From sequence record OR896824.1: a stretch of 64,000 nt of DNA. The stretch is one strand, 5' to 3'. Source of the DNA: Escherichia phage SmurfNell. Below are positions 35,437 through 48,416 of the stretch, piece after piece; position 1 is the stretch's first letter; each line of letters begins with the position of its first letter. The position numbers and the translations under genes were made by a program. The notes beneath the pieces were generated by a model. The model made no database searches. It was not told where the DNA came from and saw only the letters and a program-made list of their open reading frames with translations.

Positions 35437-35466
35437 ATATTTATAAATTTGAGAGAGGAATCAAAT

Positions 35467-36522
35467 ATGATTAAGACTGGTCTAGTAATTGGTAAGTTCG
35501 CGCCATTAACGCGTGGTCATATTAACCTAATAAACACAGCAGCAACTATGTGTGAACGAGTTATTGTTGTAGTTAGTCATGATAATCGTTGGCTGGATAA
35601 GCAGAACACACGTGATCAGGAAGTATTACAGTTAAAGAATCGACTTCGTTGGTTAGAACAAACTTACGCGGATATTGAGCACATTTCGGTAGAGTACATT
35701 ATTGAAGATGATATTCCTGAATATCCGAATGGTTGGCCGGAATATGCTAGAATCCTTAATGAAAATTACGGACATTTGCCTGAGATCACCGTTTTCTCTA
35801 GCGAACTAGACTATGATGCAGAATATAAGAAATATCTGCCGAAGTTTGGTCATTATATTGTAGATTCTGATCGGACTCGTGTTCCAATCTCAGCTACAAT
35901 GATTCGTAATGATCTTATGAAGTATTGGGAGTTTCTTCCTAGCGTAGTTCGTAAAGATTACGTGCGTAAGGTTGTAATCATTGGGACTGAAAGCTCGGGA
36001 AAGACTACTTTAACAAAATACCTTGCGAAGCTATACAACACTTCGTGGGTAGAAGAATATGGCCGAACGTATTGTGAAGTTGATCTAGTTGGTAACGAAA
36101 ATCTACTTATCAGTGAAGATTACAGTAAAATTGCGTTCAGACACAAAGAGCTAGAGTTTGAGGCAGAACGTACTGCAAATAAGATCATGTTTGTAGACAC
36201 AAATGCTTTTATTACTGAGTTCTACCACAGACTTTATGAACATCGTAAGAATCCTGTGGTTACAGCAATTGCAAAAGAAGAACATTACGATTTAGTAATT
36301 GTTCTAGCGCCTACTGTTAAGTGGGTAGATGATGGTTTACGTATTAACTCCGATCGTTCAATTACTTCTGAACTGTTCGAGCAGATGAAGAAAGAATTTC
36401 CAAATCAGTTCCCTGAAGGGCGTACTGTTTACATCGACTCCCCGGACTACAAAGTTCGTATGGACGAAGCAGTAAACGCAGTAGACTGGCTGATTCATCA
36501 CTTTAACGTTGGAGAGTTTTAA
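35467..36522 (+). CDS. nadR: NadR-like bifunctional NMN adenylyltransferase / ribosylnicotinamide kinase
   Basis: Cytidylyltransferase (H/T)xGH motif region (GKFAPLTRGHINLI) followed by a P-loop kinase domain (VVIIGTESSGKTTL); start 35467 after GAGAGAGGAA RBS. Confidence 0.75.
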   Translation: MIKTGLVIGKFAPLTRGHINLINTAATMCERVIVVVSHDNRWLDKQNTRDQEVLQLKNRLRWLEQTYADIEHISVEYIIEDDIPEYPNGWPEYARILNENYGHLPEITVFSSELDYDAEYKKYLPKFGHYIVDSDRTRVPISATMIRNDLMKYWEFLPSVVRKDYVRKVVIIGTESSGKTTLTKYLAKLYNTSWVEEYGRTYCEVDLVGNENLLISEDYSKIAFRHKELEFEAERTANKIMFVDTNAFITEFYHRLYEHRKNPVVTAIAKEEHYDLVIVLAPTVKWVDDGLRINSDRSITSELFEQMKKEFPNQFPEGRTVYIDSPDYKVRMDEAVNAVDWLIHHFNVGEF

Positions 36523-36523
36523 T

Positions 36524-37201
36524 ATGACTAACTATCTTGTAAATGACTTTAAAAACTGGAAACCTTTGGAATATCTGTGGCTGTTTATAGCAGTCGCCTT
36601 TATTAGTTTAGCAAACTATAATGGTACAGCTCTAGATTGGGCTACTGCAATAACCAATGTGGTTTGTGTTATTCTGGTTGCAAAAGGACGTGTTTCCAAC
36701 TATATTTGGGGCTTAGTGGGTGTTCTTACATATGGTATTACAGCTTTAAACGCAGATCTTTATGGTAACGCTGCACTAAACCTGCTATACTACGTTCCTA
36801 TGCAGTTTTATGGAATGTACTTATGGCATAAAAATAAGCCAAGTAATCTGCCAGATGTTCCAACTAAGTTTCTGACTAAAGCCCAAGCTCTGCTGACTCT
36901 AGGGATTCTAGCAGTAGCCACGTTAGGGTATGGTAGTTTCTTAGCTACTACAGCTGATCCATTCCCAATGCTCGATGCATTTACTGCGGTTGGTAGTGTG
37001 ATCGCTATGTGGCTTATGGTTAAGCAGTATGCCGAGCAGTGGCTGATCTGGATTGCTATTAACATTGGTACTGTGTACATTTGGCTTGTAACTGCTCAAT
37101 CTACAGGTGCATCTTATGCAATCCTAGCAATGTGGCTAGTATTCTTAGGTAACTCTATTATGGGAGCCTATAAAGGATACTTTGTACGCGTTAACAAATA
37201 A
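36524..37201 (+). CDS. pnuC: PnuC-like nicotinamide riboside transporter
   Basis: About 225-aa polytopic membrane protein with Trp/Tyr-rich motifs (NYIWGLVGVLTYG, LYYVPMQFYGMYLW) typical of PnuC; overlaps nadR stop. Confidence 0.7.
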   Translation: MTNYLVNDFKNWKPLEYLWLFIAVAFISLANYNGTALDWATAITNVVCVILVAKGRVSNYIWGLVGVLTYGITALNADLYGNAALNLLYYVPMQFYGMYLWHKNKPSNLPDVPTKFLTKAQALLTLGILAVATLGYGSFLATTADPFPMLDAFTAVGSVIAMWLMVKQYAEQWLIWIAINIGTVYIWLVTAQSTGASYAILAMWLVFLGNSIMGAYKGYFVRVNK

Positions 37202-37248: not shown

Positions 37249-37277
37249 TTGCTTAATATAGAAAATTTCTGTATAAT
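37249..37277 (+). promoter_or_regulatory. T5-type sigma70 promoter
   Basis: TTGCTT-17-TGTATAATAT plus ATTTATAAATTCGAGAGAGGAATCAAAC leader. Confidence 0.7.
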
Positions 37278-37307
37278 ATATTTATAAATTCGAGAGAGGA
37301 ATCAAAC

Positions 37308-37604
37308 ATGAAACGCATTGTACTTGCATTGACTCTAGTATCTACTTCTGTATTTGCTGCTCCGCAACAGGAACTTTGTCAAGTTCAGGTTTGTAATAAG
37401 CTAGAACGATTTACTCTAAACATTTGGTCCCATATTAAAGATAATATGGGTGAACAGTGTTTTGATATTGTTCTGCCAAAAGAACAGGCTATTCCTGGTG
37501 CTGTTCTTAGCTCAGAATCACGTTGGTGGCAGGGTTCTTCTATCAATCCAACTAAGAAGTCAGTGACACGTATCAAACAAGTATATCAGTGCAAGGTTCA
37601 GTAA
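37308..37604 (+). CDS. secreted hypothetical protein (98 aa)
   Basis: Signal peptide MKRIVLALTLVSTSVFAAP; downstream of promoter 37249-37277. Confidence 0.55.
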   Translation: MKRIVLALTLVSTSVFAAPQQELCQVQVCNKLERFTLNIWSHIKDNMGEQCFDIVLPKEQAIPGAVLSSESRWWQGSSINPTKKSVTRIKQVYQCKVQ

Positions 37605-37612
37605 AATTTCAC

Positions 37613-37641
37613 TTGCTTAATGTCGAAATTTTCTGTATAAT
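37613..37641 (+). promoter_or_regulatory. T5-type sigma70 promoter driving the first tRNA block
   Basis: TTGCTT-17-TGTATAATAT; tRNA-Ser starts 15 nt after the -10. Confidence 0.65.
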
Positions 37642-37655
37642 ATATTCATAAATTC

Positions 37656-37749
37656 GGAAGATTAACCCTAATGGTAAGGGAGCTGTTTGCTAAACAGCCA
37701 GTAGCTGTGGAGACACGGTGTGCCAGTTCGAATCTGGCATCTTCCTCCA
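37656..37749 (+). tRNA. tRNA-Ser (anticodon GCT), type II
   Basis: Acceptor GGAAGAT/ATCTTCC, anticodon stem-loop GCTGT-TTGCTAA-ACAGC, long variable arm, T-arm GCCAG-TTCGAAT-CTGGC, CCA. Confidence 0.7.
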
Positions 37750-37754
37750 GATTT

Positions 37755-37832
37755 GGTTCTCAAGCTCATTTGGTATGAGCCGTCGCCTCATAAGCGAAAG
37801 GTAGGTAGGTTCGAATCCTCCGGGAGCCACCA
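37755..37832 (+). tRNA. tRNA with CAT anticodon (Met or Ile2)
   Basis: Acceptor GGTTCTC/GGGAGCC with G-U pairs, D-stem GCTC/GAGC, anticodon loop CTCATAA, CCA; one mismatch in T-stem. Confidence 0.55.
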
Positions 37833-37849
37833 ATTAATTAGGAGACTAT

Positions 37850-38035
37850 ATGTCACGCTTTCGAGAAATTGCTCAAGAGCTAGAAGAATGTGCCTGCCCA
37901 AAATGCTTCGGAGCAGGTGAATGGAACGATGCTGAACCTGGTGATACATGGTATAATACATACGTTTGTACACATTGTAATAGTTCTGGTATTAATCCTG
38001 AATGCGGTATTTCTCTAGATATTGAGCGAGGCTAA
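37850..38035 (+). CDS. small Cys-rich zinc-ribbon protein (61 aa)
   Basis: CxxC...CxxC (CACPKCFGAG...CTHCNSSG); GGAG RBS. Confidence 0.5.
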   Translation: MSRFREIAQELEECACPKCFGAGEWNDAEPGDTWYNTYVCTHCNSSGINPECGISLDIERG

Positions 38036-38369
38036 GATGGATATCTACACTACACCAGCAGTAAACCTGATTGGCTCTTGCCTTGTGCATTTCCGCTTCT
38101 TCCAAACGGATGATAGCAAAGAGGAGTATACCTATCCTCTGATGGATTTTCAGATTGAGGACTTCTTCCGTGAAGTGCGTAATATCTCTGAGAACTTCTA
38201 TTATGGCATGGATAAGGAAGACTTTGACATTAAGTTCCCTATAATCTCTCGTTATTTCCTAGAGCAGTCCGATGCTCGGTTTGAGAAGATTGAACACATG
38301 GAAGTAGCCTGGGCTATCCAGTTCGAAATTACTGGCTTTGCTCGATACATTCAAGGTTACGAACTATGA
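38022..38369 (+). CDS. hypothetical protein (115 aa)
   Basis: ORF overlapping the upstream gene. Confidence 0.5.
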   Translation: MSEAKMDIYTTPAVNLIGSCLVHFRFFQTDDSKEEYTYPLMDFQIEDFFREVRNISENFYYGMDKEDFDIKFPIISRYFLEQSDARFEKIEHMEVAWAIQFEITGFARYIQGYEL

Positions 38370-38461
38370 AATTAAAAGATTATTATATTGGTTGGTTTGT
38401 AGGACTAATAGTAGGATTTTCACTGGGCTACAACTTGTATCAACTGATAAACTGATTACAT

Positions 38462-38538
38462 GGGGGTGTAATCGAATTGGCATAGGTACTGGACTTAAAA
38501 TTCAGGTTTTGTGGGTTCGAATCCCACCACCCCTACCA
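38462..38538 (+). tRNA. tRNA with TAA anticodon (Leu-type) but short variable loop
   Basis: Acceptor GGGGGTG/CACCCCT, anticodon stem-loop CTGGA-CTTAAAA-TTCAG, T-arm GTGGG-TTCGAAT-CCCAC, A73, CCA; D-arm pairing weak. Confidence 0.5.
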
Positions 38539-38554
38539 AATTAAGGAAATAAAA

Positions 38555-38677
38555 ATGAAAGCTATTAAGAAAGCACTACGTAAATTTATGTACTGTCGTT
38601 TTCATAGCATCAAGTCTTCGACTAATGGTACGACTTATGATCGCTATGATCCTAAGTTTGGCTTACATTCTAAATAA
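38555..38677 (+). CDS. hypothetical small protein (40 aa)
   Basis: Short ORF with AAGGAAAT RBS right after tRNA 38462-38538. Confidence 0.3.
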   Translation: MKAIKKALRKFMYCRFHSIKSSTNGTTYDRYDPKFGLHSK

Positions 38678-38690
38678 CTGGAGAAAACAA

Positions 38691-38897
38691 ATGGCTAATC
38701 CTGAAATTACAGCACAACGCTTTATGCTGAAAGGAATTATTGCTGAAGCAGGCATGACAGAAGAAGTTGCAGATTTTCAAAAGCAATTCCTCAATATTCT
38801 CACTCAAGCCAAAGAGCTAGGAGAGAAAGAACATGACGCAGCTGTTATGGCAATCACGTTGGTTGGGCTTGATCTGGCAGAAGAATCAGGAGTTTAA
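38691..38897 (+). CDS. hypothetical protein (68 aa)
   Basis: ATG 38691 with GGAG RBS; the ORF-track start 38625 gives an unlikely hydrophobic extension. Confidence 0.45.
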   Translation: MANPEITAQRFMLKGIIAEAGMTEEVADFQKQFLNILTQAKELGEKEHDAAVMAITLVGLDLAEESGV

Positions 38898-38926
38898 CTC
38901 CTCCAAGCAGAAATTTTAAAAATGTA

Positions 38927-38956
38927 CTTGCTTTTTACTTAAGATTTCTGCTATAA
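38927..38956 (+). promoter_or_regulatory. T5-type sigma70 promoter
   Basis: TTGCTT-18-TGCTATAATAG plus TTATATAAATTGATGAAGGAG leader. Confidence 0.6.
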
Positions 38957-38987
38957 TAGTTATATAAATTGATGAAGGAGTTAACGA

Positions 38988-39263
38988 ATGTCAAAACGTG
39001 TTACTGCAACTGGTGTTGAAAGTGCTGTTTGTAAATCCTGGGGTGGCTGGGAAGGTGAGATTGAATGGCTTTATTTCTACGACGTAGAACTTCTGCCGGA
39101 AGTCAAAGCTAAATGTGTGGAAGCCGGTATGGCTCCTGATGCAAAGGCTGATATCGAAATCACCATGCCTAAGCTAGAAGGTCGTGTAATTACGCTCAAT
39201 GATGATTATGAAGAAGTGTTCGAGCTTCCCTTCAAACTGAGTGTCACTCCTAGCTTCGAGTAA
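38988..39263 (+). CDS. hypothetical protein (91 aa)
   Basis: Downstream of promoter 38927-38956; GAAGGAG RBS. Confidence 0.55.
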   Translation: MSKRVTATGVESAVCKSWGGWEGEIEWLYFYDVELLPEVKAKCVEAGMAPDAKADIEITMPKLEGRVITLNDDYEEVFELPFKLSVTPSFE

Positions 39264-39299
39264 CTGATATAGCACTGAGCAAGTTCTTTAAAATTTGAC

Positions 39300-39328
39300 T
39301 TGCTCAGTCCTTCAAATCTTGATATAAT
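39300..39328 (+). promoter_or_regulatory. T5-type sigma70 promoter upstream of the tRNA-Tyr block
   Basis: TTGACTTGCTC ... GATATAATAG; -35 either TTGACT or TTGCTC at 17-nt spacing. Confidence 0.55.
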
Positions 39329-39391
39329 AGTTATCTAATTTGGAAACATATTTAAAAGTGTTTAAACTAGTATTTGAATATTTCTAAATAT

Positions 39392-39482
39392 GTTGGATTA
39401 GTATCGTAGAGGTAGCGAAGCAGACTGTAAATCTGCCGACTCGGAAGGGTCTCGGGTGGTTCGACTCCATCATCCAACACCA
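39392..39482 (+). tRNA. tRNA-Tyr (anticodon GTA), type II
   Basis: Anticodon arm GCAGACTGTAAATCTGC identical to E. coli tRNA-Tyr as recalled; perfect acceptor GTTGGAT/ATCCAAC; long variable arm; CCA. Confidence 0.8.
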
Positions 39483-39489
39483 AATTTAA

Positions 39490-39566
39490 GTCCTGTTAGA
39501 CAAACTGGTAAAGTCACTACCCTTTCAAGGTAGGATTTGCGGGTTCGATCCCCGCACAGGACGCCA
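39490..39566 (+). tRNA. tRNA-Glu (anticodon TTC)
   Basis: Acceptor GTCCTGT/ACAGGAC, anticodon stem-loop CTACC-CTTTCAA-GGTAG, T-arm GCGGG-TTCGATC-CCCGC, CCA. Confidence 0.75.
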
Positions 39567-39573
39567 ATTTCTG

Positions 39574-39651
39574 CATTCCTAGAGTGTTACTGGACAGCAT
39601 GTCGGTCTCCAAAACCGTACGGTCTAGGTTCGAGTCCTAGTAGGTTTGCCA
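39574..39651 (+). tRNA. candidate tRNA-Trp (anticodon CCA); acceptor stem imperfect
   Basis: T-arm CTAGG-TTCGAGT-CCTAG and anticodon hairpin CGGT-CTCCAAA-ACCG are clear, but 5'/3' acceptor pairing has two U-U mismatches. Confidence 0.3.
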
Positions 39652-39657
39652 ATATTT

Positions 39658-39732
39658 GCGACTTTAGCTGAGATGGATTAGCGTCTCCCTGAAAAGGAGA
39701 AGAGGTACGATCGTTACGTACAGGTTGCACCA
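39658..39732 (+). tRNA. tRNA-Phe (anticodon GAA)
   Basis: Acceptor GCGACTT/AGGTTGC, anticodon stem-loop TCTCC-CTGAAAA-GGAGA, CCA; unusual T-loop ATCGTTA. Confidence 0.65.
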
Positions 39733-39749
39733 ATTTGAAGGAGATGCTG

Positions 39750-40022
39750 ATGCATCCTGAAAACTTCTTTATTTACTGTGCGGATAAGTCATTAAAACGC
39801 AGAATTAACAAAGTCTACCATTATCGTGCTAGTCAACAGCCTTATGTTTATGCTTTTGATGGAGAAACCATTCCACTAAAGCAGTTGGCATGTGATTACA
39901 TGGTCTTGAAGAACTTTGATGAGACAAAGATCTCAAGCGTTCATAATCGACAGAATCCATTAACGTGGAAGTATAAGAAGAAAAAGAAAGGCATCAAATT
40001 TCTGAAAAATGTAGTTGCTTAA
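39750..40022 (+). CDS. hypothetical protein (about 90 aa)
   Basis: ORF after tRNA-Phe; AAGGAG RBS. Confidence 0.45.
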   Translation: MHPENFFIYCADKSLKRRINKVYHYRASQQPYVYAFDGETIPLKQLACDYMVLKNFDETKISSVHNRQNPLTWKYKKKKKGIKFLKNVVA

Positions 40023-40043
40023 ATCCTTAAAGTTCTGTATAAT
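40015..40043 (+). promoter_or_regulatory. T5-type sigma70 promoter
   Basis: TTGCTT-17-TGTATAATTA plus TTACATAAATTGAACTGGAG leader. Confidence 0.6.
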
Positions 40044-40072
40044 TATTACATAAATTGAACTGGAGAAGCAAC

Positions 40073-40297
40073 ATGACAGAACAAGAATTAAAAGAACGTA
40101 AGCTGGTAATGCTTCGCTTACTAAACATTTTCTCTGGTATGGATGGTGGTATTGACTTCGTTCAACTACGCACTTTTGTAGAAGAAGCTGAAGGCGAATC
40201 TATTACTAAAATCCTTAAACATATGGGTTTATTACTAGACGCTGCTAATGTAGCTACTGAATATAAATTAGAAGATCTACCGGAGCGTGTTTCATGA
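40073..40297 (+). CDS. hypothetical protein (74 aa)
   Basis: Downstream of promoter 40015-40043; CTGGAGAAG RBS. Confidence 0.5.
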   Translation: MTEQELKERKLVMLRLLNIFSGMDGGIDFVQLRTFVEEAEGESITKILKHMGLLLDAANVATEYKLEDLPERVS

Positions 40298-40485
40298 AAA
40301 TGTTAGTTAAATTTAAGTGTTGTGGTTCTGAACATATTTTCACTCGTTATAGAGAGTTTAAGATGTGTGAGTGTGGTAAGTCAGGCTATGATGCTGGAGA
40401 TGGCTATTATGCTAGATCTATAGGACATTCTAAAGATCTAGAGTTTACTAATCTCGAAAAGCAAGATAAATCGACCGTTGGCTGA
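40294..40485 (+). CDS. small Cys-rich protein (63 aa)
   Basis: CCGSEH...CECGKSG zinc-ribbon-like; overlaps previous stop; 3' end overlaps tRNA-Cys by 14 nt. Confidence 0.45.
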   Translation: MKMLVKFKCCGSEHIFTRYREFKMCECGKSGYDAGDGYYARSIGHSKDLEFTNLEKQDKSTVG

Positions 40486-40547
40486 ATGGCTTAGGCGGAG
40501 GCCTGCAAAACCTCCTTATGTGAGTTCGAATCTCATGCGGTCGTCCA
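40472..40547 (+). tRNA. tRNA-Cys (anticodon GCA)
   Basis: Acceptor CGACCGT/GCGGTCG, anticodon loop CTGCAAA, U73 discriminator as in bacterial tRNA-Cys, CCA. Confidence 0.65.
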
Positions 40548-40554
40548 AATTTTA

Positions 40555-40637
40555 GGGTCGTTAGCCAAGCGGTTTGGCGGTGGACTGTTAATCCATGTCG
40601 AAAGACAACGTAGGTTCGAATCCTACACGGCCCGCCA
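40555..40637 (+). tRNA. tRNA with GTT anticodon (Asn-type) carrying a 13-nt variable arm
   Basis: Acceptor GGGTCGT/ACGGCCC, D-arm GCCA-AGCGGTT-TGGC, anticodon stem-loop GTGGA-CTGTTAA-TCCAT, variable arm GTCGAAAGACAAC, T-arm GTAGG-TTCGAAT-CCTAC, CCA. Confidence 0.6.
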
Positions 40638-40739
40638 TATTCTGTGTAGAGTTAAGTAAACCGGTAGCCAACCAGCTATCATTACTGATATTGAATTCAG
40701 TCACAGATACCATTTTCATTAATAACTGAGGAAATAGAT

Positions 40740-40925
40740 ATGACAACTCGTGCAATTGCTCGACTAGAAGCTGATCGTGATAGTCTGATTAATAATATTA
40801 AGGTTTGGGATCAAGAAATTGAAAACCAAAAACTGACATTAATTCAAGATATGCAGCAACAGAATGCCCGTCGTGAAGCTCTAAAAGAGGTTGAGGAAGC
40901 TATCGAAAAACTCAAAACTGAGTAA
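40740..40925 (+). CDS. hypothetical coiled-coil protein (61 aa)
   Basis: ORF with GAGGAAA RBS between tRNA genes. Confidence 0.45.
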   Translation: MTTRAIARLEADRDSLINNIKVWDQEIENQKLTLIQDMQQQNARREALKEVEEAIEKLKTE

Positions 40926-40933
40926 ATAAATTA

Positions 40934-41010
40934 TGCGATCGGGGCTGGCTTGGTAATGGTACTCCCCTGTCACGGGAGAAAATGTGGGTTCGAATCCCAT
41001 CGGTCGCGCC
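40934..41010 (+). tRNA. tRNA-Asp (anticodon GTC)
   Basis: Acceptor GCGATCG/CGGTCGC, anticodon stem-loop CTCCC-CTGTCAC-GGGAG, T-loop TTCGAAT, G73, CCA. Confidence 0.7.
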
Positions 41011-41087
41011 AATTTTTGCAGGACGCTGGTATAGATAACCACCGCGTGGGAAGTGTCTATATTTAGAGCACTGCAAAACATAATAAT

Positions 41088-41163
41088 ACATCCATAGCTC
41101 AATGGTTAGAGCTACCGCCTCTTAAGCGGAGGGTTCTAGGTTCAAGTCCTAGTGGGTGTACCA
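41088..41163 (+). tRNA. tRNA-Lys (anticodon CTT)
   Basis: Acceptor ACATCCA/TGGGTGT, D-arm GCTC-AATGGTTA-GAGC, anticodon loop CTCTTAA, T-arm CTAGG-TTCAAGT-CCTAG, CCA. Confidence 0.65.
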
Positions 41164-41169
41164 AACATC

Positions 41170-41370
41170 AGAGTAGCGTGATGTACTGCAAAGACCCAAA
41201 GTCCGGGGTGGACTTCTTGATTCAAAGGAGCAGGCATTAATTATCATTCTAGCGTGGTGGAGAGGGGACACCAGCTTGCCGAGGGTAGAAGCTCGTTCGA
41301 TTCGAGTGAAAGAATGGTTCTCGTAAATCCGCACAAGTGATAGCAGGTTCAAGTCCTGCCTAGATTGACT
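41170..41370 (+). other. unresolved tRNA-like / structured RNA region between tRNA-Lys(CTT) and tRNA-Gly(GCC)
   Basis: Contains two T-arm-like hairpins (CTCG-TTCGATT-CGAG; GCAGG-TTCAAGT-CCTGC) and a TGGTG...CACCA hairpin, but no cloverleaf could be folded by hand. Confidence 0.3.
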
Positions 41371-41376
41371 TATTAT

Positions 41377-41450
41377 GCGTTCGTAGTTAAAAGGTATAAT
41401 TTTTGGTTGCCAACCAGAAGTTGAGGGTTCGATTCCCTCCGACCGCACCA
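41377..41450 (+). tRNA. tRNA-Gly (anticodon GCC)
   Basis: Acceptor GCGTTCG/CGACCGC (one U-C mismatch), anticodon stem-loop TTTGG-TTGCCAA-CCAGA, T-arm GAGGG-TTCGATT-CCCTC, CCA. Confidence 0.65.
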
Positions 41451-41698
41451 AATTTAGGTTTCTGCTTCCTAGAGAACTGACGCCTAGATAAACAAGGCGA
41501 TGAGTTTCCGGCCGGTTCTAGTCGCTGAAAATCCTCCCGACCAGGTAGGTGTAAGTAAACGAAAGTTTACTTATTAAGTAAGTCCGACACATCGGCGGGT
41601 GTGTTCTAGTACTTAAAGAAGGTCTCGCAAACTTTCTCGCTAGCATGAGTTGATAGCTCGGTGACTTACCTAATAAGTAAATTTATTAAAAAATGTAG

Positions 41699-41727
41699 TT
41701 GCTATTTAGCTTAATTCTCTGTATAAT
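41699..41727 (+). promoter_or_regulatory. T5-type sigma70 promoter upstream of the tRNA-Pro block
   Basis: TTGCTA-17-TGTATAATAT. Confidence 0.65.
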
Positions 41728-41759
41728 ATATTTTATAAAGTGAGTTAACAAAGAATATT

Positions 41760-41837
41760 CTCCGTGTAGCTCAGTTTGGCCAGAGCGTTTCGTTTGGGGC
41801 GATAGGGTCGGGGGTTCAAATCCTCCCACGGAGACCA
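41760..41837 (+). tRNA. tRNA-Pro (anticodon TGG)
   Basis: Acceptor CTCCGTG/CACGGAG, D-arm GCTC...GAGC, anticodon loop TTTGGGG, T-loop TTCAAAT, CCA; begins about 33 nt downstream of promoter -10. Confidence 0.6.
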
Positions 41838-41843
41838 AACAAT

Positions 41844-41921
41844 TGCGGGTTAGATCTCTGGTAGAGATCGCTAGTCTCATAAGCTAGAAAGAGGTAGGTT
41901 CGATTCCTGCACCCGCTTCCA
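41844..41921 (+). tRNA. tRNA with CAT anticodon (Met or Ile2), U1-U72 mismatch
   Basis: Palindromic D-stem GATC/GATC, anticodon stem-loop CTAGT-CTCATAA-GCTAG, T-loop TTCGATT, CCA; terminal acceptor pair unpaired. Confidence 0.55.
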
Positions 41922-41942
41922 ATTTAATAGAAGGATTTCTAA

Positions 41943-42107
41943 ATGAAATTGTTTCGTTTAAAAGTAAGTGATATACGTTCTAGTAAAGATCGTAAGAAGT
42001 ATCCACTAGCTCACTACGGTAAAGATGAAAACGAAGTGATGGCGGAATTTGGTATTAATCATCCTTACTTGAAAATATACTCTATCAAAGAAGTATACAT
42101 GTATTAA
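41943..42107 (+). CDS. hypothetical small protein (54 aa)
   Basis: Short ORF between two tRNAs, below track cutoff. Confidence 0.3.
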   Translation: MKLFRLKVSDIRSSKDRKKYPLAHYGKDENEVMAEFGINHPYLKIYSIKEVYMY

Positions 42108-42109
42108 AT

Positions 42110-42188
42110 AGATCGCTAGCTCAATTGGTTTAGCAGCACCCGGCTTTTAACCGGAAGGTTCTGGGTTCGAGTCCCAGGCGGTCTACCA
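42110..42188 (+). tRNA. tRNA-Lys (anticodon TTT)
   Basis: Acceptor AGATCGC/GCGGTCT, anticodon hairpin CCGG-CTTTTAA-CCGG, T-arm CTGGG-TTCGAGT-CCCAG, CCA. Confidence 0.65.
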
Positions 42189-42205
42189 ATTTAAAGGAAT
42201 TTGTT

Positions 42206-42523
42206 ATGAATATTAACAAAGTTCTAGAAACAATATCAGAAATGTCTGGTAGAGCTGGAAAACGCTTTACTGAACTATGTATTAAAAATCAAAAAATACC
42301 AGAACATCAATGTCATTATTGTCGAGACTGTGAACAATACCATGAAATGTGTGTGGTTGAAGATTGGATCTGGGATCAGATAAGAAAAGAACAATCCAAA
42401 GATATTGTTCTATGTTTTACTTGTATGGAACGACGTTTAGGACGTAAAATTACTCTTAAAGATCTTAAACATGTTCCCTGTAACGCTCCTTACTTCATTG
42501 GTTTTAGAATGGAGAGATTTTGA
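42206..42523 (+). CDS. Cys-rich putative zinc-binding protein (105 aa)
   Basis: CHYCRDCEQYHEMC...CFTCMERR; AAGGAA RBS. Confidence 0.5.
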   Translation: MNINKVLETISEMSGRAGKRFTELCIKNQKIPEHQCHYCRDCEQYHEMCVVEDWIWDQIRKEQSKDIVLCFTCMERRLGRKITLKDLKHVPCNAPYFIGFRMERF

Positions 42524-42666
42524 TGATAATCTGGTTTTACTTAATGAAACAAAAAGTCAAGCAGTACAACGTATTTTCTGCTGATTTTACTATTGGAATG
42601 TTCTTAGCAGGATTATGTGAGTTTCTGTTTGAAGCATTCTTAATCGGAAGTCTTTTGCTCGGTTAG
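42523..42666 (+). CDS. small hydrophobic protein (47 aa)
   Basis: ATGA overlap with upstream gene; predicted single TM; 3' end overlaps tRNA-Val. Confidence 0.3.
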   Translation: MIIWFYLMKQKVKQYNVFSADFTIGMFLAGLCEFLFEAFLIGSLLLG

Positions 42667-42730
42667 TTTAATGGGAGAACCCCGTCTTTACACGGCGGTT
42701 GCGATAGTTCGATTCTATCACCGAGTACCA
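42657..42730 (+). tRNA. tRNA-Val (anticodon TAC)
   Basis: Acceptor GCTCGGT/ACCGAGT, D-stem GTTT/GAAC, anticodon stem-loop CCGTC-TTTACAC-GGCGG, T-arm GATAG-TTCGATT-CTATC, CCA. Confidence 0.7.
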
Positions 42731-42749
42731 ATTAACTCAAAATAAGGAA

Positions 42750-43109
42750 TTGCAAATGCAATTATCAAGCAAGGTTCAAGGCTACTTCGGTCATGTAACA
42801 ATGGAGTTCGCTATCTCTAAAGGTTGGGACTTCGAACAAGATTTAGCTGAGTTCTACAAAGATATTGATCTGAACGTACCGTACATGGGACTCTCTACTG
42901 GTCAGGAAATCACAGAAGCCGATGTATTCAAGGCAAGTCAAGGTGAGATAACACCTAGTTTTGCCGAGTTCTGGTTAGGAATTACTCTGAAAGATGATGC
43001 ACCGGATGGTGGTGTGGTTATGCAGAGTATGCACTCTGGAAGCTCTGATTACCTTTTCGTTAGCGACGTTAAGGAAATACAAGAAATCTGCAAAAATGTA
43101 CTTGCTTGA
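42750..43109 (+). CDS. hypothetical protein (119 aa)
   Basis: ORF with AAGGAA RBS after tRNA-Val. Confidence 0.55.
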   Translation: MQMQLSSKVQGYFGHVTMEFAISKGWDFEQDLAEFYKDIDLNVPYMGLSTGQEITEADVFKASQGEITPSFAEFWLGITLKDDAPDGGVVMQSMHSGSSDYLFVSDVKEIQEICKNVLA

Positions 43110-43131
43110 TACTTAATTTCTTGTTATAATA
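43103..43131 (+). promoter_or_regulatory. T5-type sigma70 promoter upstream of an ORF-free region and the tRNA-Ala pair
   Basis: TTGCTT-17-TGTTATAATAT plus TTATATAAATTGATGAGGAG leader. Confidence 0.65.
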
Positions 43132-43392
43132 TTTATATAAATTGATGAGGAGAAATCCTCATCAAAGTTCACTAAGGTATTAGCTCGACCTAGGACTGGC
43201 TGCCAAAAAGCACGGTTGCAATTAGACCCCTAATGGCGGGGGATACTTTGCAAGAAGTTCTAGATTAGTCCACTAGATTCAGCGGCAACTGAATAGTGTA
43301 TCGGGTTTGTGAAGAGCGGTTATCCTCTACTGGCTAATGTCTGAGGGTAATACGCACGCCGAGCTAATAGCCTTAGTAAACTTAAAGATTTT

Positions 43393-43466
43393 GGGGATAT
43401 AGTTTAATGGTAGAACATCTGCTTTGCACGCAGAAGACGAGGGTTCAACTCCCCCTTTCTCCACCA
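43393..43466 (+). tRNA. tRNA-Ala (anticodon TGC)
   Basis: Anticodon arm TCTGC-TTTGCAC-GCAGA as in E. coli tRNA-Ala; G3-U70 identity pair; CCA. Confidence 0.7.
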
Positions 43467-43472
43467 AAATTT

Positions 43473-43548
43473 GGGGTCATAGGTTATTTGGTTAAACTTA
43501 CTGCCTTGCAAGCAGTGGAACTCAGTTCAATTCTGAGTGACTCCACCA
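43473..43548 (+). tRNA. tRNA-Ala (anticodon TGC), second copy
   Basis: Acceptor GGGGTCA/TGACTCC with G3-U70, D-stem GGTT/AACT, anticodon stem-loop ACTGC-CTTGCAA-GCAGT, T-arm CTCAG-TTCAATT-CTGAG, CCA. Confidence 0.65.
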
Positions 43549-43561
43549 AATTAGAGGAAGC

Positions 43562-44023
43562 ATGGCTAGAACAGATATATTGGAAAGAAAGGATGAAATT
43601 CTTCTCTGGATAGAAGAAAATCAACCCAAAGCTGAAATTGCTAGAAGATTACGCTGCAAAGTTGATACACTGAATACTTATCTGAAAAAGATGGGAATAC
43701 AATATTCAGGTAACTCTGCTAGAAAAGGTTTTATACGTTCTGAGATACAGGATGGGTATATTCCGGCAGTGAATTACTTTTACAAAAATAGCCCAATATC
43801 TTCTAGTCAGCTTAGAATAAAGATACTACGTGATGGCTTAAAACCTCACAAATGTGAAAATTGTAATTTATCTGAATGGATGGGAGTTCCAATCCCCTTA
43901 GAGTTAGAGCATAAAGATGGTGATCATTATAATAATGAGTGGGATAATTTAGCTTTATTATGTCCCAACTGTCATACACTAACAGATACACATTCAGGTA
44001 AGAATAAAGGAACATACGCGTGA
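43562..44023 (+). CDS. HNH homing endonuclease (inside tRNA cluster)
   Basis: HNH core LELEHKDGDHYNNEWDNLALLCPNCH; flanked by tRNA genes on both sides. Confidence 0.7.
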   Translation: MARTDILERKDEILLWIEENQPKAEIARRLRCKVDTLNTYLKKMGIQYSGNSARKGFIRSEIQDGYIPAVNYFYKNSPISSSQLRIKILRDGLKPHKCENCNLSEWMGVPIPLELEHKDGDHYNNEWDNLALLCPNCHTLTDTHSGKNKGTYA

Positions 44024-44094
44024 TTGATGGAATTGGCATACATACCGTCCTTAGAAGTCGGGTTTTGAGGGTTCGAATCCCTTGTCACGCACCA
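44018..44094 (+). tRNA. tRNA with TAG anticodon (Leu-type) but short variable loop
   Basis: Acceptor GCGTGAT/GTCACGC, anticodon stem-loop CCGTC-CTTAGAA-GTCGG (one U-U), T-arm GAGGG-TTCGAAT-CCCTT, CCA; overlaps the HNH stop codon. Confidence 0.45.
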
Positions 44095-44111
44095 ATTTTG
44101 TAGTAAACAAC

Positions 44112-44203
44112 GGAAGAGCAAATCGATAGGTGACGAAAACCGCTTGGAAAGTGGCTGACTTGTGAAAGCAGGCTTGAGAGTTCGAATCTCTCTTCTTCCG
44201 CCA
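44112..44203 (+). tRNA. tRNA-Ser (anticodon GGA), type II
   Basis: Acceptor GGAAGAG/TTCTTCC, anticodon hairpin CCGC-TTGGAAA-GTGG, long variable arm, T-arm GAGAG-TTCGAAT-CTCTC, G73, CCA. Confidence 0.6.
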
Positions 44204-44209
44204 AACAAT

Positions 44210-44299
44210 AGAAGATAGGACGTAGTGGTACGTAACCGGTCTTGAAAACCGGCCCGCTGTAGTGATACGGTGATGGTTCGACTCCATTATCTTCTGCCA
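44210..44299 (+). tRNA. tRNA-Ser (anticodon TGA), type II
   Basis: Perfect acceptor AGAAGAT/ATCTTCT, anticodon stem-loop CCGGT-CTTGAAA-ACCGG, long variable arm, G73, CCA. Confidence 0.75.
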
Positions 44300-44450
44300 A
44301 ATCTTGAAGTATGCCGGAATCGGTAGACGGGGCTTCCTAAAGGGCGTAAGAGGAACATCCACTCCTCATAAGATACCCGAAAACGAGGCTGAGATAAATG
44401 GTCTATCTCGTGAAGGTTCAAGTCCTTCTGCTTCTTGATATTCAATGGCT
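44300..44450 (+). other. unresolved tRNA-like element (canonical T-arm GAAGG-TTCAAGT-CCTTC, no assignable acceptor stem)
   Basis: Perfect T-arm plus upstream 6-bp hairpin GAGATA-AATGGTC-TATCTC; about 130 nt between flanking tRNAs with no ORF. Confidence 0.3.
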
Positions 44451-44519
44451 CAAAGAGTAACGGTGCACCTTTCTAGAGAATTTTCTGGGCGAGAATCCAG
44501 AAGTAATCAACTAGTTGTT

Positions 44520-44626
44520 AGTGTGATGAGTTTCGGAGAGCCGCCACAATTGAAGTCTTTAGAATGGGTATCGCCCTTTAGCCCCTCCGAAAGGGATAAC
44601 TAGAGATTTCAATTGTGGCTATATCA
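44520..44626 (+). repeat. long-range inverted repeat (GCCACAATTGAA ... TTCAATTGTGGC) enclosing a hairpin and overlapping the 5' end of tRNA-His
   Basis: 12-bp perfect inverted repeat with arms around 44548-44559 and 44609-44620; internal hairpin CCCTTT...AAAGGG. Confidence 0.45.
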
Positions 44627-44691
44627 TAATTGGTTAATGATCCTGATTGTGAATCAGGCCTATGTGGATTCGAATTCCACTAGCCACCCCA
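44615..44691 (+). tRNA. tRNA-His (anticodon GTG)
   Basis: Acceptor GTGGCTA/TAGCCAC, D-stem TCAT/ATGA, anticodon stem-loop CCTGA-TTGTGAA-TCAGG, T-arm GTGGA-TTCGAAT-TCCAC, C73, CCA. Confidence 0.75.
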
Positions 44692-44697
44692 AATATT

Positions 44698-44772
44698 GCG
44701 TCCTTATTTCAATGGAAAGAATGTAAAGCTACGAACTTTACGATCGGGGTTCGATTCCCTGAGGATGCACCA
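44698..44772 (+). tRNA. tRNA-Arg (anticodon ACG)
   Basis: Acceptor GCGTCCT/AGGATGC, anticodon stem-loop TAAAG-CTACGAA-CTTTA, T-arm CGGGG-TTCGATT-CCCTG, CCA. Confidence 0.7.
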
Positions 44773-44796
44773 ATTAACTTATATAGGAAATAAAAT

Positions 44797-44997
44797 ATGG
44801 CTGATTTCTGCAAAGAATGCTCTATCGATATGTGGGGCAAAGATACTGGTGATCTTTCTGGTCTGATTACAGAAGCCGAAGTTAAAGAAGGCTATGGTGC
44901 TGTTGTAATCTGTGAAGGTTGTGGTATTATTCGTGTTGATCATAATGGTAAACGTCTAGAAGAACCAGATCCAATTGCCACGGTTCCTGTAGAATAA
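44797..44997 (+). CDS. small Cys-rich zinc-ribbon protein (66 aa)
   Basis: CKEC...CEGCG motifs; AGGAAA RBS. Confidence 0.5.
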   Translation: MADFCKECSIDMWGKDTGDLSGLITEAEVKEGYGAVVICEGCGIIRVDHNGKRLEEPDPIATVPVE

Positions 44998-45004
44998 AAA
45001 TTAT

Positions 45005-45080
45005 TGGGATGTAGATCAATTGGCAGATCGTCGGCCTCTGACTCCGAAGGTTCCACGTTCGATCCGTGGCATCCCAGCCA
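45005..45080 (+). tRNA. tRNA-Gln (anticodon CTG)
   Basis: U1-A72 and G73 as in E. coli tRNA-Gln; D-arm GATC-AATTGGCA-GATC; anticodon loop CTCTGAC; T-arm CCACG-TTCGATC-CGTGG; CCA. Confidence 0.7.
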
Positions 45081-45086
45081 AATACT

Positions 45087-45162
45087 TGGAGAGTAGTGTA
45101 ACGGTTAGCACAACGGCCTTTGACTCCGTTAATGGTAGGTTCGATTCCTCCTTCTCCAGCCA
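45087..45162 (+). tRNA. tRNA-Gln (anticodon TTG)
   Basis: U1-A72, G73; anticodon loop CTTTGAC; CCA; one mismatch in T-stem. Confidence 0.65.
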
Positions 45163-45168
45163 ATTTAT

Positions 45169-45243
45169 GCGTGATTAGTTCAGTGGCTAGAATAACTGGC
45201 TTCCAACCAGTAGACACGAGTTCGACTCTCGTATCCCGCACCA
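45169..45243 (+). tRNA. tRNA-Gly (anticodon TCC)
   Basis: Acceptor GCGTGAT/ATCCCGC (U4-C69 mismatch), D-arm GTTC-AGTGGCTA-GAAT, anticodon stem-loop ACTGG-CTTCCAA-CCAGT, T-arm ACGAG-TTCGACT-CTCGT, CCA. Confidence 0.65.
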
Positions 45244-45259
45244 AATATAAGAAAACGTT

Positions 45260-45481
45260 ATGGACGTTTTTGAGTTTCGTAATAAAAACCCTAGTAGACG
45301 AGTTTTAATTATTGGTGAAACATATCGAGCTTATGAGCAAGAAGATGGTTCGGTTTTATTAAATGATGAAAAGCAAGGCTATAGTTTTCATCCAGAAGAA
45401 ACATATGAGGAATTTCGTACTAAGTTTCTTTTACCAGACTGGCTAGCAATAGCTGAGCAAAGAGAACCCGAAGATGGCTGA
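45260..45481 (+). CDS. hypothetical acidic protein (73 aa)
   Basis: ORF after tRNA-Gly. Confidence 0.45.
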   Translation: MDVFEFRNKNPSRRVLIIGETYRAYEQEDGSVLLNDEKQGYSFHPEETYEEFRTKFLLPDWLAIAEQREPEDG

Positions 45482-45510
45482 TAATCTAAAGCTAAAGGTA
45501 GATAAACAAA

Positions 45511-45639
45511 TGAAGTGCGTTGAGGTTGAGTTGGGTGAAGAACGTTTAAAACTCTCCTTCGAATTCTTACAACAGTTGGCTATGACAGTAATGTCTGATA
45601 AGTCTCCTGTATTTGAAAAAGAAATTCCGTTGAAATAAC
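45511..45639 (+). CDS. hypothetical small protein (42 aa)
   Basis: Short ORF ending just before tRNA-Thr. Confidence 0.3.
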
Positions 45640-45647
45640 GGGTTTAT

Positions 45648-45722
45648 TGCTCCTAAAGCATTGCTGGCGATGCAGTTGCCTTGTAAGCATCTGAACCGGG
45701 TTCGATTCCTGGTGGGAGCACC
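45648..45722 (+). tRNA. tRNA-Thr (anticodon TGT)
   Basis: Acceptor GCTCCTA/TGGGAGC, D-arm GCAT-TGCTGGCG-ATGC, anticodon loop CTTGTAA, T-arm CCGGG-TTCGATT-CCTGG, CCA. Confidence 0.7.
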
Positions 45723-45737
45723 AAATTTAAAAATTCA

Positions 45738-45766
45738 TTTGCCTTCTCTCTTATTTCTTGTTATAA
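45738..45766 (+). promoter_or_regulatory. T5-type sigma70 promoter
   Basis: TTGCCT-17-TGTTATAATAT plus TTATATAAATTAATGAGAGGG leader. Confidence 0.6.
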
Positions 45767-45797
45767 TATTTATATAAATTAATGAGAGGGAAACCAA

Positions 45798-46091
45798 ATG
45801 AAACGTTATCTTTCTGTCGTGTTCCAAACTGGTGGTCAACGCTACACTTATGAATTTCCTGAGTCCTGGAAAATTAAAGAAGGTGATCAAGTTGTTGTAT
45901 TAACACCTCGTGAAGGCTTCAAAGTAGTAACGGTTAAACAAGTATTTCCAAAAGATCACGAACCATCTAAGTCTATTCAGTACAAGATGATTCATGGTCT
46001 AGTTCGTAAAGTACCACGAACTGAGGTAGAAGTAGATAAGACTGGTGAAGCTAAATACCAGTATACTTCTTACTTAGATGAAATGATGTAA
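45798..46091 (+). CDS. hypothetical protein (97 aa)
   Basis: Downstream of promoter 45738-45766; GAGAGGGAAA RBS. Confidence 0.55.
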   Translation: MKRYLSVVFQTGGQRYTYEFPESWKIKEGDQVVVLTPREGFKVVTVKQVFPKDHEPSKSIQYKMIHGLVRKVPRTEVEVDKTGEAKYQYTSYLDEMM

Positions 46092-46092
46092 T

Positions 46093-46168
46093 GCTCTGAT
46101 AGTTCAACAGGTTAGAACAGGCGACCGATAATCGTCAAATCTTGGTTCGATCCCAAGTCGGAGTACCA
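46093..46168 (+). tRNA. tRNA-Ile (anticodon GAT)
   Basis: Acceptor GCTCTGA/TCGGAGT, D-arm GTTC-AACAGGTTA-GAAC, anticodon stem-loop GGCGA-CCGATAA-TCGTC (C at position 33), T-arm CTTGG-TTCGATC-CCAAG, CCA. Confidence 0.6.
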
Positions 46169-46174
46169 AATTAT

Positions 46175-46247
46175 AGTTAGTTGGCAGAGCGGTTATGCAC
46201 CTCCTTCATACGGAGCGACTACAGTGGTTCAAATCCACTACTAACTA
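46175..46247 (+). tRNA. tRNA with CAT anticodon (Met-type), CCA not encoded
   Basis: Perfect acceptor AGTTAGT/ACTAACT, anticodon hairpin CTCC-TTCATAC-GGAG, T-arm AGTGG-TTCAAAT-CCACT; 3' end followed by CTA rather than CCA. Confidence 0.55.
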
Positions 46248-46619
46248 CTAAACAGAGGATCAGGTAATTGTACCAGATCCTGCTGAGAAGAGAGTCCACA
46301 TTCTATAAATGGCCGGGCGTGACAGCAGGAAGTAGACTGCAACTCCATGCTATCCAGGAGTATAAATGTAGAAGCTAAGACTTTAGATAGCCATTGTCTT
46401 AGCGTGAGCAATCACGTAGTTGCAACAGACCTGGAAGATCGCAACGTTAAAATCAAAGTTCCAGTGCTTATTTATCTAATCGAGACCATCAATCTCACCG
46501 GAATGCTAGCACCCCAACAGTAGCTAGTGATTAGATAATAAGCAAGCCTGCCTTCCAGTTTTTATCTTGCTTCTGGGTTAACAAAAAGCTGAGCCAAATT
46601 CTAACATCAGGGAGATCTA

Positions 46620-46988
46620 ATGAAAGCATATCAAAGTCTTAAGTCTGGCGTAATTAACATTGTTCATAACAATCAGATCATTCAACTATACTCTAAAGAT
46701 GGTGAACTTAAACAGAAAGTTCTAGTTGAAGATCTAGAAGGTATCACACCTCACTTTGACCCTGAGGCCTTTCGCATTGTAGATGTGGAAGTGGTTCCCC
46801 AAGTCGAGGGTGGTCAGCACCTAAATGTCAATGTGTTAAGCCGTGATCAGCTTTTGGATGCGCAGAAACATCCTGAAAAATATCCTCAGTTGACCATCCG
46901 TGTCTCTGGCTATGCTGTTCGATTTAACGCATTGACGCGTGAACAACAGAACGACGTTATTAGTCGTACATTTACTCAGGCGATATAA
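46620..46988 (+). CDS. grcA: autonomous glycyl radical cofactor (GrcA/YfiD-like)
   Basis: C-terminal [57 protein letters not shown] is near-identical to E. coli GrcA as I recall it, including the RVSGYAV glycyl-radical motif. Confidence 0.85.
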
Positions 46989-47069
46989 TGGGGTTTGGAT
47001 ACGATTTCTCCCAGCTACGCAAGGTAGTCGAGCAAACTCCATTTATCTCCCAAGTTTTAGGAGAAATGT

Positions 47070-47363
47070 GTGGATCGAGCATTAAGACGCCATCACTGGC
47101 AACGTGTGAAAAACAACCGAAAGAAGTATTGGACAGTATTCCCTCATGAAGAAAGTCCTAAGCGGTTAGGCATTATTACTACCACGCCTTGCATCTGTTC
47201 TTGTTGGATGTGTGGGAATCCTCGCAAATACTATAAGAATAGTAAAGCAGGTATGAAAATCTCGGAGATTAAAAAGATGGATGCAATGATCTTAGGTATC
47301 GGATACGGCGAAGGTATTTCAAATGATGAATTTGATGGCTTCGTAGGTTTCGGTGAAGGTTAA
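47070..47363 (+). CDS. hypothetical Cys-containing protein (97 aa)
   Basis: ORF (probable GTG start) followed by a terminator at 47372-47410. Confidence 0.45.
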   Translation: MDRALRRHHWQRVKNNRKKYWTVFPHEESPKRLGIITTTPCICSCWMCGNPRKYYKNSKAGMKISEIKKMDAMILGIGYGEGISNDEFDGFVGFGEG

Positions 47364-47371
47364 TTAATAAT

Positions 47372-47410
47372 AAACCCCGGCTATTGAATAAGTAGTCTGG
47401 GGTTTTCTTG
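47372..47410 (+). terminator. rho-independent terminator
   Basis: AAACCCCGG...CTGGGGTTT stem followed by TCTTG. Confidence 0.55.
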
Positions 47411-47427
47411 TATATAGGATTTTCGAA

Positions 47428-47613
47428 ATGAAAATTTTTAAAGTGAACTATAGCGGCCTGTGGTTAGGTGGTACAGCTATTGTTGTTGCGGAAACTGCAG
47501 AAGAAGCAATCGAACTGGCTAGAAATCATAGAAGTTCTATAGAATTCGAGAATGTGACAGTAGAAGAACTCCCTAGCAGTGGGGTAGTATACAACGACAA
47601 CGGAGATTACTAA
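47428..47613 (+). CDS. hypothetical protein (61 aa)
   Basis: ORF after terminator. Confidence 0.4.
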   Translation: MKIFKVNYSGLWLGGTAIVVAETAEEAIELARNHRSSIEFENVTVEELPSSGVVYNDNGDY

Positions 47614-47671
47614 TGTTATATTTTGAAGTTCGTCCACATTAAGTTAATTTAAAAGACTTAATGGAGGTAAT

Positions 47672-48067
47672 ATGAGCCGTACATATCGTAAACAATCTGG
47701 TGATCGTCACTGGCGTGATGCACATCGTTCTACTTATAATTTTCATAGCACTAATATCCGTATTCCGTATATCTACACGGATAGGGATGGTAAGCAGTGG
47801 AAATATTATCAAGTTCGATCCAATGAAGCATGGGCTAAAACTTGGGATGAAATTGAGAAGGAGATTCAGGAAAATATCATTCGTAACGAGAAGAAAGATG
47901 GGCACTGGTGGGATTCTATTAGTAGAAGTGTTAAGTGGCATTCTAACAAAATGGTTCGTCAGGGAAACCGTCGTGAACTTCACCGTGTGATGAAAGATCC
48001 AGAAAATTACGACTATAATCGTGATCATGACCTGCGTAAGCGTGGGTTATGGTGGGTTTACGACTAA
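47672..48067 (+). CDS. hypothetical basic protein (131 aa)
   Basis: ORF with GGAGG RBS. Confidence 0.55.
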   Translation: MSRTYRKQSGDRHWRDAHRSTYNFHSTNIRIPYIYTDRDGKQWKYYQVRSNEAWAKTWDEIEKEIQENIIRNEKKDGHWWDSISRSVKWHSNKMVRQGNRRELHRVMKDPENYDYNRDHDLRKRGLWWVYD

Positions 48068-48084
48068 TTTCATAAATAATTCAT

Positions 48085-48113
48085 TTGCTAAAACCCTCTC
48101 CTTTTGATATAAT
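48085..48113 (+). promoter_or_regulatory. T5-type sigma70 promoter
   Basis: TTGCTA-17-GATATAATAT plus TTATATAAATTGATGAGAGGG leader. Confidence 0.65.
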
Positions 48114-48143
48114 ATTTATATAAATTGATGAGAGGGCTTTGAA

Positions 48144-48416
48144 ATGAAAGAAGCAGAAATTAATGAAATGGCTAGAATATTCATCGTTTCCTATATGCAA
48201 GGCAGTTGCAATAGTTTATTCGAGTCTGCTATAGTATTTCAGGAAATGTTAGCCGAGAAAGGCGTACATATGGAAGATACTGAAATTGAAGATCTTCTAA
48301 TGGAAACTTGTAGTAGTGCTGAAGTCTTCCAGTGTGGTAACTGTAATTGGTGGTGTCCAGAGCATGATCGTTCTGAAGAAGGTTCCTACTGTTCCGATTG
48401 TGAAGGAGAAGAATAA
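48144..48416 (+). CDS. Cys-rich putative zinc-binding protein (90 aa)
   Basis: Downstream of promoter 48085-48113; CGNCNWWC...CSDC. Confidence 0.55.
   Translation: MKEAEINEMARIFIVSYMQGSCNSLFESAIVFQEMLAEKGVHMEDTEIEDLLMETCSSAEVFQCGNCNWWCPEHDRSEEGSYCSDCEGEE

Follow-up and report, generated by a model that had tools for sequence, protein, structure and literature searches.

The closest described setting for the genes considered here is the tRNA-rich region (TRR) of T5-like phages, which in T5 and SP15 is also named del-1 or the "anti-defence island" (PMC11555353; 10.1101/2023.03.15.532788; PMC12483538). The TRR has recently been the source of several counter-defence elements and defence triggers. 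Retron Eco7 is countered by tRNA-Tyr (PMC11555353), and PARIS, whose small acidic triggers Ocr, Ptr1 and Ptr2 are of use for comparison, is countered by tRNA-Lys (PMC11464382). ORF75 of SP15 (Rad in the preprint) inhibits retrons, and retron Ec83 is neutralised by ORF72+73 according to the preprint's figure legend, while the main text names ORF71 and ORF72 (10.1101/2023.03.15.532788). The only SP15 fragments that rescue from retrons Eco2 and Eco7 are F6 and F8, via tRNA-Tyr and ORF75 (PMC11555353). T5.058 (gp58), which resembles the DNA 3′-end-binding domain of PriA, triggers the DRT9 reverse-transcriptase defence (PMC12483538). The TRR, a deletion hotspot (PMC12483538), can lose about 8 kb, or 200–15,000 bp, in spontaneous events that leave the phage viable (PMC11555353; PMC12483538; 10.1101/2023.03.15.532788). 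Here we consider a group of small open reading frames (ORFs) rich in cysteine in the equivalent region of Escherichia phage SmurfNell (OR896824.1), of which a stretch of 64,000 nucleotides, called the window, was analysed.

The 10.9-kb stretch carrying these ORFs matches 642 phage records, the best being the Salmonella and Escherichia T5-like phages EH2, STWB21, OSY-STA and PECP14, with about 95% identity across about 90% of its length. On the strength of these matches, the window is therefore assigned to a T5-like phage of the Demerecviridae, close to Epseptimavirus.

Cysteine-rich genes among the tRNA genes

The Cys-rich genes are real and conserved, their Cys ligands are invariant, and they are accessory and patchy in their distribution. 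To the fuller statement, that the five ORFs and the one at 47070–47363 are accessory early genes which their T5-like phage can do without, with a host-range or counter-defence role, we would give a probability of about 0.55. The genes and the tRNA array around them are as follows.

37850..38035, + strand: Cys-rich ORF 1; PHROG match; ratio of nonsynonymous to synonymous substitution rates (dN/dS) 0.19
40294..40485, + strand: Cys-rich ORF 2; PHROG match; compared with the DUF7695 profile
42206..42523, + strand: Cys-rich ORF 3; exact ORF, Shine-Dalgarno site, PHROG match
44797..44997, + strand: Cys-rich ORF 4; exact ORF, Shine-Dalgarno site, PHROG match
48144..48416, + strand: Cys-rich ORF 5; PHROG match; two allele classes
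47070..47363, + strand: sixth Cys-cluster ORF, overlooked in the earlier note on this DNA; CxCxCxxC; orthologue of T5.055; dN/dS 0.10
37656..46248, + strand: tRNA array, from ARAGORN, Rfam and the literature (PMC11555353, PMC12483538, 10.1101/2023.03.15.532788)

The earlier note had listed the first five as small ORFs interleaved with tRNA genes, each with its own ribosome-binding site, and this description holds. All five run exactly from ATG to stop on the + strand, each is preceded by a Shine-Dalgarno-like GGAG, AGGA or GAGAGGG 6–8 nucleotides before the ATG (5/5), and they are placed among 29 tRNA genes between 37656 and 46248. Of the 30 tRNA genes that ARAGORN predicts across the window, all but one belong to this + strand array, and Rfam confirms 27 of those 29.

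Since the ORFs are very short, could they be frames left open by chance, or artefacts of annotation in the gaps of the tRNA array? Each of the five matches a PHROG end to end, with E-values of 7e-24 to 4e-45, and homologues are found at 42–60% identity. Median dN/dS values over 39 related IMG/VR loci lie at 0.05–0.24 per family, with third-position changes in excess, and no metal-ligand cysteine varies in any of the five families. The five ORFs are thus under purifying selection. The conservation on which the earlier note had made its proposal depend is therefore present, and the chance-frame explanation, to which we leave next to no weight, is already refuted by the conservation pattern.

The encoded mini-proteins have 61–105 residues and a cysteine content of 6–10%, against 1.4% over all predicted proteins of the window. 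With a gene set from a greedy, heuristic ORF call and with small counts, small ORFs having at least four cysteines make up 6/26 in the tRNA region and 2/44 in the rest of the window (Fisher p = 0.045), and those with at least two CxnC knuckles 4/26 and 0/44 (p = 0.016). The enrichment of Cys-rich small ORFs in the tRNA region is real but modest.

Probable metal binding and separate families

The PHROGs matched by the five ORFs are all without assigned function, and the proteins very probably bind metal; the claim that they are genuine small Cys-rich proteins of uncharacterised function stands. We infer that the metal is zinc, and we hold it highly probable that the proteins are genuine accessory proteins of the zinc type. 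The term "zinc ribbon", which had been applied to them, fared less well. Structure modelling covered two of the proteins, and neither is a classical ribbon, a fold in which both Cys pairs come from two β-hairpin knuckles making up a small β-sheet; the term is therefore a loose label. One of the models is confident (predicted local distance difference test, pLDDT, 88.2) and has C5 and C8 at the N-terminus of a helix (residues 6–13) and C39 and C42 in a hairpin (35–47). Treble-clef zinc fingers, such as the FYVE and ZAD domains, are among the nearest known systems, together with Anti-TRAP (RtpA, PF15777), the DnaJ cysteine-rich domain (PF00684) and the zinc finger within λ Q. Also among the nearest known systems are T5.062, T5.053 and T5.055 of T5 and PHROGs 2210, 2855, 4499, 6060, 7042 and 6053, all uncharacterised; in hundreds of genomes, members of all six families already bear the annotation of hypothetical protein.

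The five proteins had also been treated as one class, and this must be given up. They belong to mutually unrelated families: no pair exceeds 10% probability in profile–profile (hhalign) comparison of the family alignments, and a common origin was rejected.

The 37850..38035 family has the consensus CPxCxGxGE...CPxCKGTG, that is, the two CxxCxGxG repeats typical of PF00684 and PF15777. DnaJ_CXXCXGXG is matched by 10/10 members (best E 1.8e-4) and Anti-TRAP by 9/10, all below the gathering thresholds. The copy in the window reads CPKCFGAG and CTHCNSSG, its second repeat being degenerate, and it stays below Pfam gathering for both PF00684 (15.1 vs 32.7 bits) and PF15777 (13.5 vs 32 bits). No copy at least 95% identical to this allele was found among 50,697 phage records. 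In the 40294..40485 family all 11 members match DUF7695 (PF24749), and the window copy scores highest, at 24.8 bits for a cut-off of 25; at two loci, L022 and L015, the family is represented by a longer version that has two modules and ends in a separate stop shortly before tRNA-Cys.

For the phrog_6053 domain, a word-indexed search recovered only 8 clusters and an exhaustive hidden Markov model search 923 representatives at E ≤ 1e-3. Its signature is CxxC...[MV]VxDxxW...LCxxCxExRLGRx[IL]xxxD[LF]xxxPxN. All ten members scanned fall in the viral phrog_6053, and none has a Pfam match within the domain. The domain is duplicated in tandem in some members, fused to DUF4326 in one (P0025) and, by inspection, to an apparent CxxCxGxG finger in another (P0022). 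The 48144..48416 family occurs in T5-like phages only (20 clusters), with no relative in Pfam or the PDB, and forms two allele classes, 75 phage records having at least 80% identity and 243 less than 60%.

Operons and possible roles

The earlier note had often given the ORFs promoters of their own, and here it was largely wrong in detail. A generic promoter scan returned 34 sites, no better than the 29.2 ± 5.3 in shuffled sequence, and annotated T5 promoters were therefore mapped by homology instead. Homologues of P15b, P14b, P13a, P13b, P11 and the T5.053 promoter are found on the window, with the following candidate sites.

37626..37661, + strand: candidate T5-promoter homologue; 26–29 nucleotides at 93–96% identity, a weak mapping
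40005..40069, + strand: candidate T5-promoter homologue; 89% identity over 65 nucleotides
41689..41743, + strand: candidate T5-promoter homologue; 94.5% identity over 55 nucleotides; TTGCTA-17-TATAAT at 41699
43102..43156, + strand: candidate T5-promoter homologue; 96% identity over 55 nucleotides
45719–45793: P11 promoter homologue, directly ahead of 45798–46091
48065..48132, + strand: T5.053 promoter homologue; 88% over 68 nucleotides to the annotated T5 promoter; 10/12 matches, extended −10 TG
47375–47406: T5 terminator homologue, downstream of 47070..47363

As mapped by homology, the Cys-rich genes lie in tRNA operons, and this operon map is among the most useful new points. Transcription of the P11 operon and tests of its four protein genes have been described (PMC12483538).

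What might such proteins do? Most likely, a single structural Zn(Cys4)-type site would stabilise the fold of each mini-protein. The proteins would also most likely act as stoichiometric binders rather than by catalysis, because they are too small for enzymes and few surface residues are conserved beyond the metal ligands. Their most probable role would be to modulate host range or counter-defence in some hosts. The genes are patchy and rapidly replaced and belong to a dispensable island (deletions: PMC12483538, PMC11555353); a patchy occurrence with divergent alleles would suit accessory genes engaged in host conflict. From context, anti-defence or the binding of a host factor is plausible, because the region is dispensable, the distribution is patchy and allelic, and neighbours have shown defence-related roles. 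For any given Cys-rich protein, action in counter-defence is a tentative proposal that we hold at below even odds.

Comparison with the TRR determinants (tRNA-Tyr, tRNA-Lys, ORF75/Rad, SP15 ORF72+73 and T5.058) is instructive. The Cys-rich proteins share with them the island, the operons, small size, dispensability and patchiness, but none of these determinants is rich in cysteine, and none is a homologue of the proteins considered here. The determinants assigned so far are either tRNAs or proteins poor in cysteine. Of what is left uncharacterised in the island, the Cys-rich mini-proteins thus form the largest group, and the analysis yields ranked candidates for deletion and co-expression screens.

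Several points weigh against a host-range or counter-defence role. Neither experiment nor homology connects any Cys-rich protein to a target, no activity is reported for their homologues, and no inhibition has been demonstrated for any of them. Scans with PADLOC and NCBIfam gave no usable matches, the PADLOC models being those of defence, not anti-defence, proteins. Selection is purifying, not diversifying, and the enrichment test depends on a heuristic gene call and small numbers. As for the host takeover named in the earlier note, it is the pre-early first-step-transfer genes that see to this in T5, rather than the early tRNA region.

An alternative explanation is that the genes are selfish cargo or hitch-hikers in a tRNA region prone to recombination and homing; as small cassettes they would pass from one co-infecting T5-like phage to another and profit the phage little, if at all. 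The HNH genes interspersed in the region, as possible homing companions, and the deletion hotspot (PMC12483538) speak for it. However, every family is under clear purifying selection on the protein, and the Cys-rich proteins have no HNH motif between their Cys pairs and no other nuclease motif, so that we consider this explanation unlikely. Interleaving and co-transcription with tRNA genes could instead point to a tRNA-directed role; the Rpr2-domain match and tRNA-processing association of Rpr2/Rpp21 RNase P proteins (PF04032) were not found, and such a role, which we consider quite improbable, is not supported as far as the sequence allows. A Q-type antiterminator role is suggested by phrog_6060 and by many GenBank records named "anti-termination protein Q-like". 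The match, however, is confined to the CxxCxGxG finger, 33 residues out of a 207-residue protein, and is equally good to DnaJ and anti-TRAP. The profile of the 37850..38035 family finds no more of λ Q than this 33-residue zinc finger (4mo1, E 0.05), and the full fold of about 200 residues, with RNA-polymerase- and DNA-binding parts around the finger, was not found. The Q-like gene is missing from T5 and about half of T5-like phages, a poor fit to a core regulator, and a Q-type role is, within the same limits, not supported and very improbable.

Neighbouring genes and other features

Counterparts of several known determinants can be placed on the window. The gp58 orthologue is at 45798–46091 and is 88.5% identical to the SP15 copy. 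The SP15 ORF71 counterpart is at 38988–39263, that of ORF72 at 38625–38897 (62% identity), and that of ORF73 at 38555–38677, assigned from its position alone and lacking a match in tblastn. The Cys-rich proteins were also considered as the SP15 anti-retron ORF72/73 or as ORF74; this was rejected, as ORF71 and ORF72 match other ORFs of the window and ORF74 is unrelated and Cys-free. No Rad homologue is present at the corresponding position of the window. Instead, directly upstream of the tRNA region, 35449–37201 encodes a NadR-like protein (cytidylyltransferase-like plus AAA_28) and a PnuC-like nicotinamide riboside transporter; the counterpart of this neighbourhood is T5.076 in T5 and ORF75/Rad in SP15.

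Within the tRNA array there are two tandem isoacceptor pairs, two adjacent copies of tRNA-Ala(UGC) at 43393–43466 and 43473–43548, and adjacent tRNA-Gln(CUG) and tRNA-Gln(UUG) at 45005–45162. An HNH endonuclease gene at 43562–44023 had been overlooked in the earlier note. Between tRNA-Ser and tRNA-His, about 315 nucleotides (44300–44614) have no convincing ORF and no Rfam match at gathering score; the same interval in T5 has the annotated stable RNAs RNAIII, RNAI and RNA1 and the small ORF T5.063.

The 122-residue protein of 46620–46988 has a C-terminal glycyl-radical domain (Pfam Gly_radical, E = 4e-18; RVSGYAVRF motif) and a GrcA/YfiD-type likeness, that is, to a spare part of pyruvate formate-lyase. 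Its relatives are annotated as formate acetyltransferase, autonomous glycyl radical cofactor or acetyltransferase-related protein. Finally, the 98-residue ORF at 37308–37604, ahead of which lies a P15a-type promoter copy (37268–37303), has four cysteines and an apparent N-terminal signal peptide (MKRIVLALTLVSTSVFA); its product is probably an exported disulfide-bonded protein and not a zinc protein.
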